Shown here piece after piece: positions 36,157-45,097 of a stretch of 64,000 nucleotides of DNA; the first letter of the stretch is position 1, and the number at the start of each line of letters is the position of its first letter. A model generated the notes under the pieces. It worked only from the letters and a program-made list of their open reading frames with translations, did no database searches and was not told the DNA's origin. Source of the DNA: Promethearchaeota archaeon. GTDB lineage: Archaea; Asgardarchaeota; Lokiarchaeia; Sigyniarchaeales; SOKP01. A program made the position numbers and the translations under genes. The stretch spans positions 1 through 64,000 of the forward strand of contig JBHLOI010000002.1 in NCBI GenBank assembly GCA_048940645.1. Reading direction: 5' to 3'.

Positions 36157-37308
36157 ATGAAGAGTAGAGAAAGGGTTAAAAGAGCGTTCCATTATGAAAA
36201 ACCCGATCGAGTTCCAATGTTTAGCATGAATTTGATTAAATCAGATTTTTTATATGGTATTCTATTTAATTCAAAAATATGGCAACCTGAAAACTATCCA
36301 CCTCACGTTTCAGGAGGAGTATATTCAATTTCCAAATTATATTATCGCCTTCTTGTATATAATTGGGAGAAAAAGTTTAGAAAGAAAGCAGAATACCCAA
36401 AAAGATGGTGGAAATACCCTCATACTAGTATAGATGAGTGGAATATTTTGTGGAAATCTGCTGGAACTGAAAGCAAAGATATTACCAAAGGACATCCTTG
36501 TTTTGGTCCAATTCAGGATAATTGGGACAATTTAATCAACTTTGAAATACCTAATGGATCAAATTCAGATAGATTTCGATTAGTTCGATTTAAATTATGG
36601 AAAATCTTGGCAAAAAACAAATACACTGTAGGAGTATTAGATGTAAATGGCTTTTTCAATTTATGTTCCCAACTTAGAGGTTTTAATAACATTTTAATAG
36701 ACTTTGTGAGAAATTCTAATAAGGTGCATATATTAATAAACAAATTGGTTCCCTACTTTCTAGATCAGATAAAGGAATATAAAAGCCAATATCCAAAATT
36801 AGATGCAATATATGTAGCTGATGATCTAGGTACACAAAAGTCACCTTTCATAAGTCCGGTAATATTTAATACATTTTTTAAGAAACCTTACAAGAAAATT
36901 ATTAATTTAACACATGATTTAGATATGGATTTTATACTCCATTCATGTGGCCAAATTTTCGAACTGATGCCAAATGTCATAGATACCGGGGTTGATGTTT
37001 TTCAATTTGATAGCCCTTTAATGACTGGTGTAGAAAATTTCAAGCTGTATTCCGAACAAAGAAAGGTTGCTTTTTGGCTCTCTTCGAACATTCAGAGCAC
37101 TTACATACTTGGAACTCCGATAGATGTGGAGAATGAAATAAAATATTATATTGAGCAGATAGGGAAAAAGAATGGGGGATTAGCGATTTGCGAATATGAC
37201 TCAAATAGCACTTTAGGCACTCCCAAAGAAAATATTATAGCCCAAAGGGAAGCTACATTAAAATGGGGCATATATAATCAGGAAGGGTATATTACTTGGT
37301 TAGTATAA
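36157..37308 (+). CDS. Uroporphyrinogen decarboxylase / MtaA-CmuA methyltransferase family protein
   Basis: MKSRERV..A...EKPDRVP, DEW, LRG, DDLGTQ, LHSCG. Confidence 0.85.
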   Translation: MKSRERVKRAFHYEKPDRVPMFSMNLIKSDFLYGILFNSKIWQPENYPPHVSGGVYSISKLYYRLLVYNWEKKFRKKAEYPKRWWKYPHTSIDEWNILWKSAGTESKDITKGHPCFGPIQDNWDNLINFEIPNGSNSDRFRLVRFKLWKILAKNKYTVGVLDVNGFFNLCSQLRGFNNILIDFVRNSNKVHILINKLVPYFLDQIKEYKSQYPKLDAIYVADDLGTQKSPFISPVIFNTFFKKPYKKIINLTHDLDMDFILHSCGQIFELMPNVIDTGVDVFQFDSPLMTGVENFKLYSEQRKVAFWLSSNIQSTYILGTPIDVENEIKYYIEQIGKKNGGLAICEYDSNSTLGTPKENIIAQREATLKWGIYNQEGYITWLV

Positions 37309-37451: not shown

Positions 37452-38708
37452 TTAAGGTTTGTCGTCAAATTTTTTTAAATTTTTTCTTGTAATATTATAC
37501 ATTTCCATTAATAACAATCCATGATAATATGATATCGCATCAAAATAAACTTCTCCCAGTTCAGATTTACCAGAATGTACTAAAGCCAATTGAGCATTCA
37601 AAGCGGTTTTAATTAACAATTCTACCCCAGTATAAATTAAATTTGGACTCCAAATCCCTCTATCTGGATTTGCCCACCAAGTAGGACAAGAATATAATCC
37701 TCTATCATAAAAATATCGAGCGGTTTTATAATAATTCTCAATATCCCAATCTTCTGTAAAATCTAAACTATCCACTATATTAATTAGATTATGTAAGCTA
37801 TTCATTATTTTCCAGTAATATTTATGAATGATATTATCTGGATTTCTCCATAGGGGGTAGGGTAATCCAGATTTTAAATCATCATAGGTAGTACTCCAGC
37901 TTGAATCATTTGGTATTATATGTTTCTTCACCATAGGGAAATAATTATTTAATTCAGATATAAAAATCATTTTGATACTTTCTTCTTCACTGATTAATTC
38001 CATAGTTTTTCCCAGAAATATTTTTTCATAGTTCTTTACGTGATGCCCAAATGTTTCTCCATCCATTGCTGTTATGATATATGTATCATTGGCATTTTTC
38101 TGCTTTGGATCCTTATGGGTAGTTTTTAAATCTTTAACAAATTCTTTGGCGGAAATATGTTTAAACGAAATTTTATTACTCAATATGTCATCTCTAAAGT
38201 AAAGCAATAAACCATTTGGGGAAGTAAAGATCTTATCATAAGGCCATTCCACAGGACAAGCAATTCCGCTTAAAATGACCCATTTATAACCTAAATCTCT
38301 TAAAAATTTAGCCACTTTAGAATTAATCGATAATTCGGGAGGGAAAAAGCCTTTTCTTTCCCATCTTCCAAATGTCTTAATGTTCACTTCTTCATTTATT
38401 TGAATTTGATGTTGTGCTTCTTTTCTTGGAATTAAGGGCAAAATTGGATGAAATTTTGCGGTACCAACTACTTCTATTTTATTTTCAACTACTAAGTCTT
38501 TTATTAATTCAATAGTATCTCCAAAATCATATTCATATAACATTTCGATAAGGATACCATTAATATTTAAACAAAATTTAGCGTTATCATATCCTTTAAT
38601 TAGAGAAAATAATGGTTTATAACATTCTTCATTAATCCTCTTTAAAACTTTAATATCCTGAGTCGGAGGTTGATATATATGTATAAGAGGGGCAAAATAT
38701 GTTGTCAT
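37452..38708 (-). CDS. Glycoside hydrolase family 57
   Basis: HIYQP, FHPILPLI, GFFPPEL (nucleophile), AMDGETFGHH (acid/base), SSWS. Confidence 0.92.
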   Translation of the reverse strand: MTTYFAPLIHIYQPPTQDIKVLKRINEECYKPLFSLIKGYDNAKFCLNINGILIEMLYEYDFGDTIELIKDLVVENKIEVVGTAKFHPILPLIPRKEAQHQIQINEEVNIKTFGRWERKGFFPPELSINSKVAKFLRDLGYKWVILSGIACPVEWPYDKIFTSPNGLLLYFRDDILSNKISFKHISAKEFVKDLKTTHKDPKQKNANDTYIITAMDGETFGHHVKNYEKIFLGKTMELISEEESIKMIFISELNNYFPMVKKHIIPNDSSWSTTYDDLKSGLPYPLWRNPDNIIHKYYWKIMNSLHNLINIVDSLDFTEDWDIENYYKTARYFYDRGLYSCPTWWANPDRGIWSPNLIYTGVELLIKTALNAQLALVHSGKSELGEVYFDAISYYHGLLLMEMYNITRKNLKKFDDKP

Positions 38709-38775: not shown

Positions 38776-40335
38776 TTAACTAAATGAAGTTTTAAAATTT
38801 TGTAGGGCTTTATTACGATTTATACAAGGTTTACATTTTCCACATGGCTCGTTAAAATCTCCATAACAACTCCATGTTAGATCAATAGGGACCTTAAGCT
38901 TTTTAGCTAACTTAATAATTCCTAATTTATCTAGTTTTGCTAAAGGAAAAATTAATTTTAAATTAGTTCTATCCTCTTTATGTTTAGATTTCAATATTAA
39001 TTTTTCCAAAGATTTAAAGAAAGATAATTCAGAATCCGGAAAAGATTTTGGATCCTCAACAATATGGCCTCCAATGACAAATTCACATCCGTAAATTTGT
39101 GCATAATAAGCTGCTATAGAATAAAATATTAAATTACGCAGCGGTATATAGCCTTCGGGTGCATTAAAAGCGGAAATAACAGGATACCCCTCAAAAAGTA
39201 GATCGGTTGCTTGTGCTATAAATGGGATATTAACCTCAGTTAATTCAACTCCAGCTATCTTTGCTAATTCTCTAGCAGCTTGTTTTTCTTTCTCTGGTCT
39301 ATATTGATAATTCATCGAAAGCGTAATAACTCTATAACCTTGTTTAATTGCCCAAAAAAGCGTTGTTGTAGAATCAATACCACCAGAAAGTAGTATTATT
39401 GCTCGGTTTTCTGATCTATCTAACTTAGGTTGTAGTTTCGCTAATACTGCTGCTTTAACTGCTTCACTTAAAGAGGTAAGCTTATAATTCAAAATTTGGG
39501 CAGTTAAATTTCCATCTAAATTTAGATTACACCGCATAACATCAACCATTTCTTCGCAAATGTCTAATTCATCAGCAGCTTTATCATAGTCAATGTAATT
39601 AAAATCTGGTTTGGGAATATTTATGCCAATTTTTTTTATATTTGAATAGACCCTATCAACTAATTTATTCATATTGGTAGTTTCTGGGCCTACAAGGTTG
39701 TATATTTGATTATCCTTACCAATTCCATCAGCAGCTGCTAAAAATGCTTTAACCGCATCTTTAACATAAATAGGTTGCATTGGGATTTTTCCATCTCCAG
39801 CGATTAATACAATCCCATTAGAGATTTGCTCAATAATCTCAGGAATTAACTCATCATTTGGACCTAAGATATAGGAGGGTCTAAAAATAATATAAGGAAT
39901 TTTACTCTCTTGCAATAGCTGTTCTGCCTTTTTTTTTGAGTAAAAATAATTATTATTGGCCCATTCCTCAATACCAACTTTATCAACACCTAACCCCGAG
40001 GGATATATTATTCTTGATACATTTTGGCTTTTAGCAGCTTCTATAACATTTTTCAACCCATTAACATTTATACTTTCAAATAATTCCTTACTTCCACATA
40101 CAATATTCGCAAAATGTAATACTGCCTTACACCCATTAAATGCTTGTTCTAATTTTTCGATTGCAAAATTTTTTACAATATAAGGTTTTGCTCCTAGGTT
40201 TTTAACCAACTCAACAACTTCTTGTCGTCGTACAATAGCATTAACTTTCCATCCTAATTTTATTGCTTCCTTTATAGTGTGTTGTCCAAGGTAGCCATTA
40301 GCACCAGTTATTGCAACTCTTTTTGTTTCATTCAT
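38776..40335 (-). CDS. queC: Fusion: NAD(P)-dependent SDR/epimerase domain + 7-cyano-7-deazaguanine synthase QueC
   Basis: N-terminal TGANGYLG, YFYSK, RPSYILG; C-terminal LLSGGIDS, YIPLRNLIF, TWSCY...PCGKCKPC; one uninterrupted 519-aa frame. Confidence 0.88.
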   Translation of the reverse strand: MNETKRVAITGANGYLGQHTIKEAIKLGWKVNAIVRRQEVVELVKNLGAKPYIVKNFAIEKLEQAFNGCKAVLHFANIVCGSKELFESINVNGLKNVIEAAKSQNVSRIIYPSGLGVDKVGIEEWANNNYFYSKKKAEQLLQESKIPYIIFRPSYILGPNDELIPEIIEQISNGIVLIAGDGKIPMQPIYVKDAVKAFLAAADGIGKDNQIYNLVGPETTNMNKLVDRVYSNIKKIGINIPKPDFNYIDYDKAADELDICEEMVDVMRCNLNLDGNLTAQILNYKLTSLSEAVKAAVLAKLQPKLDRSENRAIILLSGGIDSTTTLFWAIKQGYRVITLSMNYQYRPEKEKQAARELAKIAGVELTEVNIPFIAQATDLLFEGYPVISAFNAPEGYIPLRNLIFYSIAAYYAQIYGCEFVIGGHIVEDPKSFPDSELSFFKSLEKLILKSKHKEDRTNLKLIFPLAKLDKLGIIKLAKKLKVPIDLTWSCYGDFNEPCGKCKPCINRNKALQNFKTSFS

Positions 40336-40510
40336 ATTAATATCTCATTTTTATATTGATTATCCAAATTAATATTTATCCTACATATTTTAAAAATCAT
40401 AAGAACAGATAGAATAGATTTATAATCTTTAAACACAAAATATAAAAAGATTCAAAAGAAATTCAATACAATTCCAATAATTAAAATAATTTAAAATAGA
40501 TTGACATTCT

Positions 40511-40966
40511 ATGGGATATAAAGTTATTATCAATTCTAACAAAATCAAATTCAGTGCTTGTCATTTTCTTAAAGAACCTCGCAAATGTTCAAGGCTTCAT
40601 GGTCATAATTATTATGTTTCTGTTGAGCTAGAAGATGAATTAGATGATAATTACTTTGTTGATGATTTTATCAAATTAAAAAAGAATATTAAGGAAATTG
40701 TTAAACATTTAGATCATTTCATTCTGATACCAGAAGAAGCACCTTATTTAAAATTCAAAAAAGATCAAACCTCTGTAGAAGTTCTAACATCAAATAAACG
40801 CTATGTTTTTCCTCTCTCAGAAGTTAAATTTCTTCCAATTCCGGCTAGTACTAGTGAACTTTTAGCTAAATATATTCATAGTAAAGTTAAAGAGATCTAT
40901 AAAGATAAGAAAATTTCTGTTAAATTAGAAGAAAGTAAAGATGCAATAGCTGTTTATGAAGATTGA
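40511..40966 (+). CDS. queD: 6-carboxy-5,6,7,8-tetrahydropterin synthase (QueD/PTPS family)
   Basis: FSACH, CSRLHGHNY, LDH, STSELLAKYI; divergent from queC. Confidence 0.9.
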   Translation: MGYKVIINSNKIKFSACHFLKEPRKCSRLHGHNYYVSVELEDELDDNYFVDDFIKLKKNIKEIVKHLDHFILIPEEAPYLKFKKDQTSVEVLTSNKRYVFPLSEVKFLPIPASTSELLAKYIHSKVKEIYKDKKISVKLEESKDAIAVYED

Positions 40967-40980
40967 TAATTACACTTTTA

Positions 40981-42090
40981 CTACTTTTCTATTATTGTTT
41001 CTTTTATTTTTGTACCAAAATGTGTGGCTCCTGGTCCAAGATGAACTAAAATTTCATCTCCTAATTTTATATCTACTACTGATTTTGCATTACCATTTGA
41101 ATCCACTAATCTTATAGTTTCTGCATTTTGACAGATACAACTTAAATGAATCCTCTCATTATTAATAACTGTCTCCAATTTAAATCTTAGCATAGGGCGT
41201 GTTTCTATTTTAACTCTTCCCACAGAGGCAATTCTTCCAATTCCATCAACATTAACAATTAAAACTTTATCTCCCCCTTCTAATTCACTTAGATATTTCG
41301 TTCGGAAATTGAAAGGGTCATCTCCAGGTACTAATATATAGGCAGATACATCCCCCGCATTGACACGAAATGGTCTGGAAGCAACAAACTGCGTTTCAAA
41401 TACTTCTGCATGAACTAAAGCAAAACCTTGAGCAGTACTTCCCACAAGCATACCTTCTCCTTTATATAAGAGAGAAGTAGTATCAACACAGACTCTATCA
41501 CTTTCAGGTAATTTTTGAATATTAATGACTTTTGCTTTATTTAATCCTACTCTAATAGCTGGTTGCATAATTTTCTTTAATTCTGCTAAATCATTCACAT
41601 CCTTTGGAGTTATTAAAATTCCATCAACACCGATTTCAAGTGTTTTTAGCATTAATTCTACTTCTTCAATATTATCTACATTTGCTATCAGTTCAATATC
41701 AGTTGATTGTGTCATAGCAATTAAATTTTCAAATGGAATTATTTTCCAATCAGGAGCAGAAACAATTATAAAATCAACTTTTTTGTTTTTTGATAGTTCT
41801 TTTACTAATATCTCATTTTCCTTTGATTCAATAATTTCATAAAAGCCAATACTTTTTTCTTCGGAATATTTTTTTCCTAACTTTTCTAAATCCTCTTTAG
41901 AATCAAAAATTATATGATCTGTGGATATCTCAGGAAATCTGGAATATATATTAATACGCTCAATATTTTCGAAATATTTAACTGTTTCATTAGATACTAA
42001 AAAATTCAAAAAGTCTTTATTAAAAGCTTCTTGGACTAATTCATTAAATTTATTTATTTCATGCTCAAAATTCAAAATTATTCGTTTCAT
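40981..42090 (-). CDS. 3-dehydroquinate synthase II (archaeal AroB')
   Basis: DWKIIPFENLIA, DRVCVDT, GEGMLVGS, RPFRVNAG, QNAETIRL, HFG..IKETIIEK. Confidence 0.95.
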   Translation of the reverse strand: MKRIILNFEHEINKFNELVQEAFNKDFLNFLVSNETVKYFENIERINIYSRFPEISTDHIIFDSKEDLEKLGKKYSEEKSIGFYEIIESKENEILVKELSKNKKVDFIIVSAPDWKIIPFENLIAMTQSTDIELIANVDNIEEVELMLKTLEIGVDGILITPKDVNDLAELKKIMQPAIRVGLNKAKVINIQKLPESDRVCVDTTSLLYKGEGMLVGSTAQGFALVHAEVFETQFVASRPFRVNAGDVSAYILVPGDDPFNFRTKYLSELEGGDKVLIVNVDGIGRIASVGRVKIETRPMLRFKLETVINNERIHLSCICQNAETIRLVDSNGNAKSVVDIKLGDEILVHLGPGATHFGTKIKETIIEK

Positions 42091-42241: not shown

Positions 42242-42892
42242 GTGGGACTGAAGAAAAAATTGTTCCCTCGAAAAAGTAAAGAAAAAGAAGATTTAATTAT
42301 AAAAGCTAAGTCTCATATCCGACAAATTTCTTTAGCAAATAAAACTTATAATCAGAGATCAGAAATAGCAAGAAAGAATGCGAAAATTGCCTTAAAAAGG
42401 GGAGAACGCGAAAGAGCAAAGAATTATTTAATTCAATTTAAACAATATCAGCGAAAGGTGGACCGAGCAAACAATATAAGGGCAAAAATAGAAAGACAAA
42501 TAGAAGCGATAGAGGAAGGACAAATGATTTCAATGACAGGAGATTTGATGGGTGGAATACGAGATGAGTTAGAAACTATTGCCACGAAAGCGTCTCCTAC
42601 TAAGGTCGCTGAGATTGCGGAAGATTCTGAGGCTTATGTTGCCGAAATAGAAGAATCCGCAGAAATTCTTGCGGGTGATCCCGAAATTGACTTGGCGATT
42701 GACGTCACAGATGATTTGAACCAGCTTGAGACCGAAATGTTGTTAGAACAGGGTGGTCAAATGCCAGAAGTTCCGATTGATGATTTGCAATACATTTCTG
42801 AATTAGATATTGAAGAAGAACCAGAAATCAAAACTAAAGCTAAACTAGAAGATGAAATTGAAAAATTAAGAAAAGAATTAGAAGGCGGATAG
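42242..42892 (+). CDS. ESCRT-III / Snf7-family protein (Vps20/32/60-like)
   Basis: Basic helical N-half (AKIALKRGERERAKNYL...QIEAIE), acidic C-half with DDLNQLE, MPEVP and a terminal LEDEIEKLRKEL helix; GTG start. Confidence 0.85.
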   Translation: MGLKKKLFPRKSKEKEDLIIKAKSHIRQISLANKTYNQRSEIARKNAKIALKRGERERAKNYLIQFKQYQRKVDRANNIRAKIERQIEAIEEGQMISMTGDLMGGIRDELETIATKASPTKVAEIAEDSEAYVAEIEESAEILAGDPEIDLAIDVTDDLNQLETEMLLEQGGQMPEVPIDDLQYISELDIEEEPEIKTKAKLEDEIEKLRKELEGG

Positions 42893-42940: not shown

Positions 42941-45097
42941 TTAACTAAAGTATCTTTTTTTATCAAATTCTCTATTAGATCTCCTTAGAGATTCACTTTC
43001 TCTTATTTCTTCTTCTAAATTTTCGATCTTTCTATCAATTAAATAAATTTCCTTTTGAAGATTTTTAAATGTCCTAAAATAATCAATTTCAGAAATTATC
43101 CCATTATCAAACTTTGAGTCCAATGTTTTTAGAGTTTCTTCAAGGCTATATTTTTCTTTTTCTAATTCGAGCATTTTTTTTCTTTTTATCTTCTCAACTT
43201 TAGATATTCTCTTCTTATGCATATAATTTTCCTGAGATAATGTGTAATCTGGGTTAAATAAATCCGATAAATGATTTTTAGAATATTCCCGATATATTGG
43301 CATCCTATTTTGTTCACTTCTTCTATTATTTAGTTCCATATATAACTCATCGTTAATATTATAATTATATTTATCAATAGGGTTTAATATTGGTGGATTA
43401 TTACGCTGTATTTGTTCTAATTTTCGCATTAAAATGTTTTTTTCATCTAGATCAGCAATATTTCGAATATGTGGATCCTCAAACCTTTCTGAGCGATAAT
43501 TCTGTATTCTGTTTGGATCATAAAAATTTTGGAGAAAGAAGTCATTCTCATTATAATTGGGTGGGAGATATTGCCTTAACGCATTTCCATAATATCTTAT
43601 ATCCCCAGGAGTTTGTATCTGAGAATTTCTTAAATCATAAGGATAAATATTATTCTGATAAAGCGATTGATTTTGAAAATTAGGATTAAAATTTTTATAT
43701 GCTCCTGGAGGTAAAATGGCGGGATTTTGATAAGGGTCAAAATTTTGAGGGTTTCGATTTTGATTTTGATTTTGAACAGAGTTAAATTGGACTTGTTTAA
43801 CAGGATTATATGGATTTTGAATAAAAAGATTATTATTTTTATGCTGGTTATTAAAAGTATTGTTCTGGTGGATAGTATTGTATTTACATTTTAAACTGAA
43901 AAAGGAGTTTATTGCTTCTTCAATATAATTAATTATATCTGAAAAATCTATGTCCATTTCATAAAGATTTTTAGCCGAGTCTTCATCATAGATAACACAC
44001 TCATCAAAGTTTCTAGCTAAGAGGATGTAATCCATAACTTTTGTGAGGACTTTCGGAGGAAGTGTAAATTCATATCTCCCATATTCAAATTCTACATATA
44101 GTTTTTTAAATAGCTTTCCCCTAAGTTTAATTCTAGTTAAATCTTTTACTGGAGCTTTGAAGATTGTTTTTTGTTTTTTCTTAATTTTTCCATACCTTTG
44201 TACGAAAGATAAATCAAAATTTGTTATAAAAAGAATACCTTTATTTTTTTTAAACTTATCATGATTATTTAAGCCATTGGTAAGTTTAGCATAAACTGCA
44301 TATACAGGCTTCTCTTTATCTGCTAGATTAAGATATTTCCTATATGAATTAAAAAGAATATTGATTTTGTCAATAAAGTAGAGATTCTTTTGGATGGGTT
44401 CAACGCTATTAGTTATAGTAATTATATTATTAGTAATAAATTCATTAATAGAGTGGTAATTTGTATTTAAATTTTCAAAAATGCCCTCAATAATCTTTAC
44501 ATTTGAATTTGGTTGAGTATAAATATTAAAAAAATACTCTTTATTAAGAGAAAAATGATGAAAGAGGATGCTAATCTTTTCTAATAAATTTTCCTTAGCA
44601 TAACCAAATAATTTAAACAGAGATAATAGGTCAGATTCCATATTTGGATAATGATGACATCTAATTGGAGGAGCTCTGGCTTTTTCAATTTTTTGTCTTA
44701 ATGTATACAAATTATTAAGGGCATCTCGTAGAGGATCTATAAATGTGCGAGCATTTTTAATAAGATCCAAGAATTTTTTTTCTAATTGTTCCTTTTTTTC
44801 ATAAATATTGATAATTTGATGAGAATGGCATCTAGGACAGGATTTTAATTGTTGGTTTACTAGTTTTACGTTCTCCTTTCCACAATTTTTACAGACTTTC
44901 TTTTTTCCTGAATCTAAAATCTCAATATTTTTTGAGTTACAGTCTTGACATACATAAAAATCATATTTTTCTTCATGTAGGCAATCAGAACAACAACTTG
45001 TGCCACATTCTTCACAGTAATAAGCTAACTTAATATTCCTTTGACAGAAACGACAAATTTGTATGTGTTGGTCTGACATTTTTATGATTTGATCCAA
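42941..45097 (-). CDS. Multidomain protein: Zn fingers, helical region, PH/GRAM-like domain, N/Q/P-rich region and C-terminal Vps23/TSG101-like steadiness box
   Basis: Several CxxC pairs; KGILFITNFDLSF; NQNQNRNPQN; LELEKEKYSLEETLKTLDSKFDNGIISEIDYFRTFKNLQKEIY. Confidence 0.7.
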   Translation of the reverse strand: MDQIIKMSDQHIQICRFCQRNIKLAYYCEECGTSCCSDCLHEEKYDFYVCQDCNSKNIEILDSGKKKVCKNCGKENVKLVNQQLKSCPRCHSHQIINIYEKKEQLEKKFLDLIKNARTFIDPLRDALNNLYTLRQKIEKARAPPIRCHHYPNMESDLLSLFKLFGYAKENLLEKISILFHHFSLNKEYFFNIYTQPNSNVKIIEGIFENLNTNYHSINEFITNNIITITNSVEPIQKNLYFIDKINILFNSYRKYLNLADKEKPVYAVYAKLTNGLNNHDKFKKNKGILFITNFDLSFVQRYGKIKKKQKTIFKAPVKDLTRIKLRGKLFKKLYVEFEYGRYEFTLPPKVLTKVMDYILLARNFDECVIYDEDSAKNLYEMDIDFSDIINYIEEAINSFFSLKCKYNTIHQNNTFNNQHKNNNLFIQNPYNPVKQVQFNSVQNQNQNRNPQNFDPYQNPAILPPGAYKNFNPNFQNQSLYQNNIYPYDLRNSQIQTPGDIRYYGNALRQYLPPNYNENDFFLQNFYDPNRIQNYRSERFEDPHIRNIADLDEKNILMRKLEQIQRNNPPILNPIDKYNYNINDELYMELNNRRSEQNRMPIYREYSKNHLSDLFNPDYTLSQENYMHKKRISKVEKIKRKKMLELEKEKYSLEETLKTLDSKFDNGIISEIDYFRTFKNLQKEIYLIDRKIENLEEEIRESESLRRSNREFDKKRYFS

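Follow-up and report, generated by a model that had tools for sequence, protein, structure and literature searches.

To our knowledge, all known 7-deazapurines, among them queuosine, archaeosine, the deazaguanines of DNA and the toyocamycin-type antibiotics, are thought to share one route, through QueD, the radical S-adenosylmethionine (SAM) enzyme QueE and QueC. In the canonical pathway, QueD is preceded by FolE or MptA, and QueC uses ATP and ammonia to convert 7-carboxy-7-deazaguanine (CDG) to 7-cyano-7-deazaguanine (preQ0). Two further described systems resemble, in part, the gene that is our subject here. In GAT-QueC, the crenarchaeal archaeosine synthase, an archaeal QueC-type domain is joined to a second catalytic domain, which alters the use to which the QueC fold is put, and QueF, an NADPH-dependent preQ0 reductase with a T-fold, is a nicotinamide-dependent enzyme acting on the 7-substituent of a 7-deazaguanine. 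We analyzed a 64,000-nucleotide stretch of DNA from the Asgard archaeon Promethearchaeota archaeon (GenBank assembly GCA_048940645.1, contig JBHLOI010000002.1, positions 1 to 64,000; hereafter the window), in which a single gene, lying next to queD, joins a short-chain dehydrogenase/reductase (SDR) to a QueC-type domain that we call QueC′. In GAT-QueC the added domain is a class-II glutamine amidotransferase on the N-terminal side, whereas here it is an SDR, and the fusion genomes already have ArcS to form archaeosine. As judged from its sequence, the gene appears to encode a bifunctional enzyme composed of an NADP(H)-type extended SDR and QueC′. We assign a probability of roughly 0.5 to the reading that QueD and this fusion run an undescribed, QueE-independent branch of pterin/7-deazaguanine metabolism.

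The initial annotation of the window had reported an SDR and a QueC in one frame, head-to-head with queD across 175 bp. The coordinates agree with this description:

38776..40335, minus strand: SDR-QueC′ fusion gene, a single uninterrupted open reading frame (ORF) with an ATG start, 519 amino acids (aa) plus stop
39436..40335, minus strand: extended SDR domain (NDUFA9/NSDHL-like), aa 1-300, assigned from Pfam, PDB sequence matches and Foldseek
39406..39435, minus strand: interdomain linker, aa 301-310, with the only internal dip (to ~80) in the predicted local distance difference test score (pLDDT)
38794..39405, minus strand: QueC′ domain, aa 311-514, assigned from Pfam QueC, motifs and the tree
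40336..40510, no strand: divergent intergenic region between the fusion gene and queD, 175 bp
40511..40966, plus strand: queD, 151 aa, PTPS family (PTPS E 3e-23; CSRLHGH, fitting Cx3HGH)

No stop codon or frameshift was found in the linker of the fusion ORF. Pfam placed Epimerase, NAD_binding_10, 3Beta_HSD and NmrA matches at aa 4-214 (E 2e-22) and a QueC match (PF06508) at aa 311-514 (E 2e-49), the latter spanning model positions 1-209 of 210. The motifs first read from the sequence are also in place, namely GANGYLG (GxxGxxG) and YFYSK (YxxxK) in the SDR, and the SGGIDS PP-loop and four cysteines in QueC′, with FPDS where canonical QueC has YPDC. An AlphaFold2 model built on a 79-sequence alignment (mean pLDDT, 94.7; predicted template modelling score [pTM], 0.87) suggests that the fusion would form one compact, rigid two-domain body.

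A search for the combined architecture identified a conserved fusion family. Among the protein matches listed, at least 120 were full-length homologues with the same domain set (512-570 aa, 54-89% identity), drawn from many independent metagenomes and annotated merely as QueC. A census of the 91 genomes of the window's own family yielded 37 whole fusions and 3 that were cut by contig ends, that is, 40 fusion genomes. These counts rule out an assembly artefact or a lost stop codon as the origin of the fusion, and since the gene is not unique to this assembly, the finding stands. Among 301 genomes of the phylum, the full-length fusion was restricted to the window's own family. Fusions could still be recognized at identities down to ~35%, and remoter SDR-QueC′ fusions were found in P0136, P0140, Loki CR_4 and the 'Zod' metagenome-assembled genome (MAG). 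The uniform label of these proteins, '7-cyano-7-deazaguanine synthase', is corrected by this analysis. We located no description of an SDR-QueC fusion, in line with the initial annotation, and a 2026 survey of PF06508 mentions neither an SDR fusion nor Asgard proteins (PMC13329287).

The C-terminal domain had been taken for a complete QueC, an assignment that we revise, as it belongs to a separate subfamily with a remodelled pocket. Like canonical QueC (PF06508 cluster 1; TIGR00364; 3BL5; E. coli), it has queD as a neighbour and retains the fold, and it can be aligned to B. subtilis QueC (3BL5). However, the fusion scored only 139.8 bits against the TIGR00364 equivalog, under its cut-off of 150.3, and ~170 bits against Pfam QueC compared to ~240 for standalone QueC of sister genera. 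In a maximum-likelihood tree, QueC′ and canonical QueC formed separate clades (support 100/100), and the QueC′ clade contained the fusions together with standalone forms from genus g11, from Bathyarchaeia and from one Nitrososphaeria MAG.

We then compared 121 fusion sequences with the published signature of canonical QueC, which comprises SGGxDS, YxQxHxxE, VPxRN, YPDC and the Zn motif; in E. coli QueC, Y35, R99, Y131 and Y189 are essential, with Y131F being partly active (PMC13329287). This signature was intact in nine canonical standalone QueCs from the same Asgard order. All 121 fusions retained the SGGIDS PP-loop (aa 317-322), the zinc-binding cysteines C490, C498, C501 and C504, and residues Y35, E42, P97, N100 and D133. 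Y189, which follows the first zinc cysteine, was present in 116, and position 99 was R in 101 sequences and K in the other 20. The departures from the signature were just as regular. The cysteines are spaced Cx7CxxCxxC, compared to x8 in canonical QueC. The YxQxHxxE segment reads Y-Q-Y-R-P-E-K-E in the window; its Y and E were always kept, but Q37 was replaced in every sequence by W, L, Y or F and H39 by P (115 sequences) or S (6 sequences). VPxRN, which reads IPLRN, is kept in part, with P and N in all sequences but I for V in 118. YPDC reads FPDS, with F for Y131 in 119, D in all and C in none. C134 had become A, T, V or S, and the R135 that follows it was also lost throughout. With the catalytic residues kept and the pocket residues always replaced, the adenylating and zinc-binding machinery appears to be under selection and the substrate pocket to have been rebuilt.

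The SDR domain shares its fold, GxxGxxG and the N-S-Y-K tetrad with NDUFA9/NSDHL-like SDRs and with nucleoside diphosphate (NDP)-sugar epimerases and dehydratases, some of which drive decarboxylation or rearrangement by transient oxidation. Its best PDB matches by sequence were 9g83_P (NDUFA9-like) and 6jkg (NSDHL), at ~20% identity, and Foldseek returned 9g83_P together with NDP-sugar 4-epimerases, with template modelling (TM) scores to the target of 0.7-0.8. Unlike in those relatives, the partners here are QueC′ and QueD rather than sugar-pathway genes. In the 79-sequence alignment, G11, G14, G17, R36, N90, S113 and K134 were invariant and Y130 and R37 were at least 90% conserved, and by these residues the domain looks catalytic. 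The R36-R37 pair after strand 2, where an acidic residue is absent, suggests NADP(H) as the cofactor. The domain also has a C-terminal motif of its own, E-M-x-D-x-M, close to a cysteine.

The feature that most clearly sets the fusion genomes apart from canonical QueC genomes is the lack of QueE. The initial annotation had pointed out that queE is missing from the window, which is correct, but it sought the anomaly in QueF and thereby understated it: QueE is missing family-wide from genomes with the fusion. The genome of the window (3.83 Mb, 89.6% complete) contains arcTGT, ArcS, a MptA-type GTP cyclohydrolase and one QueD, whereas QueF (PF14489) and FolE were not found in it, and no QueE was detected in it by a QueE model, by tblastn or by a six-frame scan for the QGEG...Cys-cluster motif. 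The best hit of the QueE model in this genome, candidate C92, was identified as NrdG, the anaerobic ribonucleotide reductase activase (TIGR02495, 156 bits). Canonical standalone QueC of ~240 aa was present in 17 of the 91 family genomes, in sister genera, and 15 of these 17 encode a 287-aa QueE (E ≤ 1e-81) in queE-queD-queC clusters. When this QueE served as the query, 16 genomes in total were matched (E ≤ 1e-81). No QueE was detected in the 40 fusion genomes, including nine with a completeness rating of 100%, by any of three queries: a B. subtilis model, the 287-aa QueE of the family, and the QueE of G213, a single-contig genome of 4.4 Mb from the same order, which gave the same pattern. The B. 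subtilis model misses the 287-aa QueE at E ≤ 1e-6 and is thus unreliable alone, which is why the search was repeated with the two lineage-specific QueEs, tblastn and the motif scan. One exception was noted. The fusion genome G104 has a QueE in a QueD-QueE-FolE island (G104:C7:61984-65376) of 43-49% GC content in a genome of ~29%, and a fragment of QueC lies farther on in the same contig; the island is clearly foreign and looks like a viral or otherwise foreign 7-deazaguanine gene set. Within the family, not one of the 91 genomes carried both QueC types, and genus g6 includes one genome of each.

The 287-aa QueE itself is distinguished by a long insertion and by cysteines clustered in a Cx(12-14)CxxC-type pattern (L088-L093, e.g., L089:10819-11682). 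As the B. subtilis model is blind to this variant, surveys of QueE in Asgard archaea that rely on models will undercount it. Downstream of a standalone QueC in a different Asgard family (G038:C1:2592000-2609000; L050) come a gene resembling nucleoside 2-deoxyribosyltransferase and another with a weak likeness to TGT, a context that resembles deazaguanine DNA-modification or purine-salvage settings.

The retained partner of the fusion is queD, the sole PTPS-family gene of its genome. Its product scored 70.5 bits against TIGR03367, under the cut-off of 89.25, but it is 57-67% identical to QueD from the queE-queD-queC clusters of sister genera, to which it is orthologous, and it retains all motifs; a lineage-specific His-to-Pro change lies three residues ahead of the catalytic Cys. 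Of 30 related loci, 27 showed the head-to-head arrangement, as did almost every named Promethearchaeia locus, and the syntenic surroundings of the pair differ between genera g1 and g2. No PTPS/queD gene was found in the three cassette-less, 100%-complete genomes that were checked. In four g2 genomes (G225, G273, G195 and G171; L183-L186), the syntenic site, flanked by DUF166 and a zinc-ribbon/roadblock-like gene, has kept no more of the fusion than its final 84-110 codons; queD has been deleted from G225, G273 and G195, and in G171 it is frameshifted. The fusion and queD thus decay as a unit and constitute a mobile two-gene cassette, which in this Asgard family occupies the place of the queE-queD-queC genes of sister genera. 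No further conserved cassette genes were found, queD being the only one common to the genera compared; DUF166 and the coiled-coil neighbours, which were considered as members, reflect ordinary synteny in genus g2. A role of the cassette in making the 6-hydroxymethylpterin precursor of folate or methanopterin is unlikely, given that relatives with 100% completeness have neither queD nor the fusion.

The partnership between SDR and QueC′ extends beyond the family and predates the fusion. In Bathyarchaeia/Thermoproteota, the two are separate genes whose stop and start abut, so that the coupling of the domains proposed in the initial annotation is borne out by fusion in Asgard archaea and adjacency in Bathyarchaeia, whereas canonical QueC has no such SDR partner. 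A QueE-model search of Bathyarchaeia was negative, but the positive controls were negative too with that model. In a FastTree phylogeny, the SDRs linked to QueC′ formed one clade (support 0.947), with the Nitrososphaeria SDR outside it and an acidobacterial clade as its sister (joint Shimodaira-Hasegawa-like support 0.976). In 7 of 10 of these acidobacterial loci, a second QueD paralog lies within 2 kb of the SDR. Vicinamibacteria have a normal queD-queE-queC cluster, and the second QueD paralog (QueD′) is located elsewhere, beside the SDR. The acidobacterial link rests on this adjacency and not on single-frame SDR-QueD′ fusion, which is rare (at least two sequences; one other example among the 120 relatives listed). 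The SDR lineage therefore has QueC′ as its partner in archaea and QueD in bacteria, and what these associations share is an SDR of the NADP type working together with the enzymes that flank the QueE step. One Vicinamibacteria locus (L153:5944-10547) encodes an extended SDR, a DAO-type FAD oxidoreductase, QueD′, a weak GH88-like gene product and a classical SDR, a redox-rich cluster that is possibly a pterin pathway; in L148:5992-7275, SDR and QueD′ share one 427-aa frame directly after purH.

The other genes around the cassette in the window are as follows:

36157-37308, plus strand: MtaA/URO-D-like protein, flanking gene
37452-38708, minus strand: GH57 glycosidase, flanking, downstream of the fusion
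40981-42090, minus strand: archaeal 3-dehydroquinate synthase II (DHQS-II), flanking gene

These three neighbours are conserved only within the genus and lie outside the cassette. Synteny between the window and the standalone-SDR locus of g11 was considered and rejected, the URO-D-like proteins being just 27% identical and the glycosidases unrelated. Just past the DHQS-II gene are a homologue of Snf7 (ESCRT-III; 42242-42892, plus strand) and a protein of 718 aa that weakly matches the Vps23 core (42941-45097, minus strand). Both are typical Asgard genes of the endosomal sorting complexes required for transport (ESCRT), in keeping with a host that is an Asgard archaeon of the Loki lineage. The GC content of the window is ~29%.

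For the QueE-independent branch, we envisage the following steps. QueD would make 6-carboxytetrahydropterin (CPH4) from the MptA product, and the fusion would act on CPH4, or on a close pterin/7-deazaguanine derivative, in two coupled steps. QueC′ would catalyze ATP-dependent activation of the carboxylate, towards an amide, a nitrile or an acyl-adenylate, and the SDR an NADP(H)-dependent redox reaction. In this scheme, the substrate, the product and the sequence of the reactions are inferred. Carboxylic acid reductases and alpha-aminoadipate reductase also couple an ATP-activating domain to a Rossmann reductase of the NADPH type, and by analogy a conversion of carboxylate to aldehyde is a plausible reaction for the fusion; the likeness is one of analogy only, as the fusion, unlike those enzymes, contains neither an ANL adenylation domain nor a carrier domain, and its PP-loop fold bears no relation to theirs. 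As to the product, the either/or pattern of the two QueC types and the universal presence of arcTGT/ArcS point to preQ0, whereas another product or salvage is suggested by the co-occurrence of QueC types outside the family, by the Bathyarchaeia that lack QueD and by the acidobacterial paralog.

Several observations weigh against a QueE-independent branch. We know of no SDR or QueC reaction that accounts for the fate of CPH4 without QueE. Four Bathyarchaeia and two g11 genomes have SDR and QueC′ but no PTPS/QueD, so that the pair does not always depend on QueD. Four MAGs (G352, G353, G354 and G462) encode QueC′ as well as a canonical-like QueC, which argues against simple functional equivalence of the two types; in G354, the nearby SDR falls outside the QueC′-linked SDR clade. 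The genome of the window is incomplete, and since the family genomes are related, the clean either/or pattern reflects a small number of independent events, two or three at a minimum. Finally, the residues essential in E. coli QueC are mostly retained in QueC′, which may therefore keep the ordinary CDG-to-preQ0 activity.

In 90 of 91 family genomes, including 30 without any QueC, arcTGT and an ArcS of ~700 aa were found, and salvage of preQ0 must therefore be possible in this family. Archaeal arcTGT and ArcS use preQ0 itself and not 7-aminomethyl-7-deazaguanine (preQ1). Nothing here needs preQ1 for that reason, and we know of no precedent for an SDR acting as a nitrile reductase. The suggestion in the initial annotation that the SDR replaces QueF is thus not upheld, and QueF has no homology to this SDR. 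The persistence of preQ0-using enzymes favors a rival explanation in which SDR and QueC′ return CDG, 7-amido-7-deazaguanine (ADG), archaeosine base or an oxidisable preQ1 to preQ0, and QueD is a leftover or serves another role. Such a recycling function fits the QueD-less Bathyarchaeia and g11 genomes and the repeated loss of the cassette. YhhQ/Vut_1, of the preQ0-transporter family, is patchy (28 of 91 family genomes); it occurs in about one-third of fusion-type and cassette-less genomes compared to about 1 in 17 of the canonical type, and the window's genome has the start of such a gene, cut by a contig end (G000:C18:3-92; L182). However, this distribution is confounded by relatedness, and we rejected YhhQ as a means of telling salvage from de novo synthesis. 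In addition, queD is under purifying selection (57-88% identity), is tied to the fusion and is lost together with it, which is not the behaviour of a leftover gene, and SDRs have no role in known deazaguanine salvage. We regard recycling as unlikely, but as the strongest of the rivals.

Ranking after it, and in our view rather doubtful, is an ordinary reaction of QueC from CDG to preQ0, with CDG supplied by an unrecognised, non-homologous or divergent QueE and the SDR in an accessory, regulatory or structural role; SDRs of the NDUFA9-like kind need not be catalytic. The retention of Y35, R99 (or K), Y189 and an aromatic residue at 131, the partial activity of Y131F, the presence of this domain as the sole QueC of its genome, the adjoining queD and the presence of arcTGT, ArcS and MptA would all be compatible with such a reaction, and the failure of the B. 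subtilis model to see the 287-aa QueE illustrates how divergent QueEs can escape. On the other hand, three QueE queries gave 0 of 40 fusion genomes against 15 of 17 canonical-type genomes, the conservation of the SDR tetrad and NADP site is unexpected for a purely structural domain, and Q37, H39, C134 and R135 are replaced without exception.

A more specific proposal, which we consider improbable and place below both of these, is that the SDR itself replaces radical-SAM QueE: transient oxidation by NADP would convert CPH4 to the 7-deazaguanine carboxylate, which QueC′ would then turn into preQ0. SDRs do use transient oxidation in sugar ring contraction and decarboxylation. If true, the 7-deazapurine ring could be reached by two routes, the second of them non-radical. 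An accidental fusion without metabolic meaning, whose SDR serves NDP-sugars or lipids independently of QueC, is very improbable: NDP-sugar 4-epimerases are among the best structural matches, the standalone SDR of g11 sits among glycoside hydrolase genes away from QueC′ and a GH57 gene lies downstream in the window, but the architecture is retained down to ~35% identity, the SDR and QueC′ genes also abut in Bathyarchaeia, a QueD paralog is linked to the sister clade of the SDR in another phylum and the GH57 neighbour is not conserved across genera.

Taken together, these data suggest that a textbook pathway for a tRNA base probably runs in an undescribed way in this Asgard lineage, which has kept QueD, a QueC-type enzyme and the enzymes for insertion into tRNA, lacks QueE and has a reductase joined to a remodelled QueC. 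With only two genes, the cassette lends itself to direct tests in vitro and in E. coli. The biochemistry would be new in either case, whether the deazapurine ring is made or recycled by a second route or the QueD/QueC toolkit now serves a novel pterin-type product.

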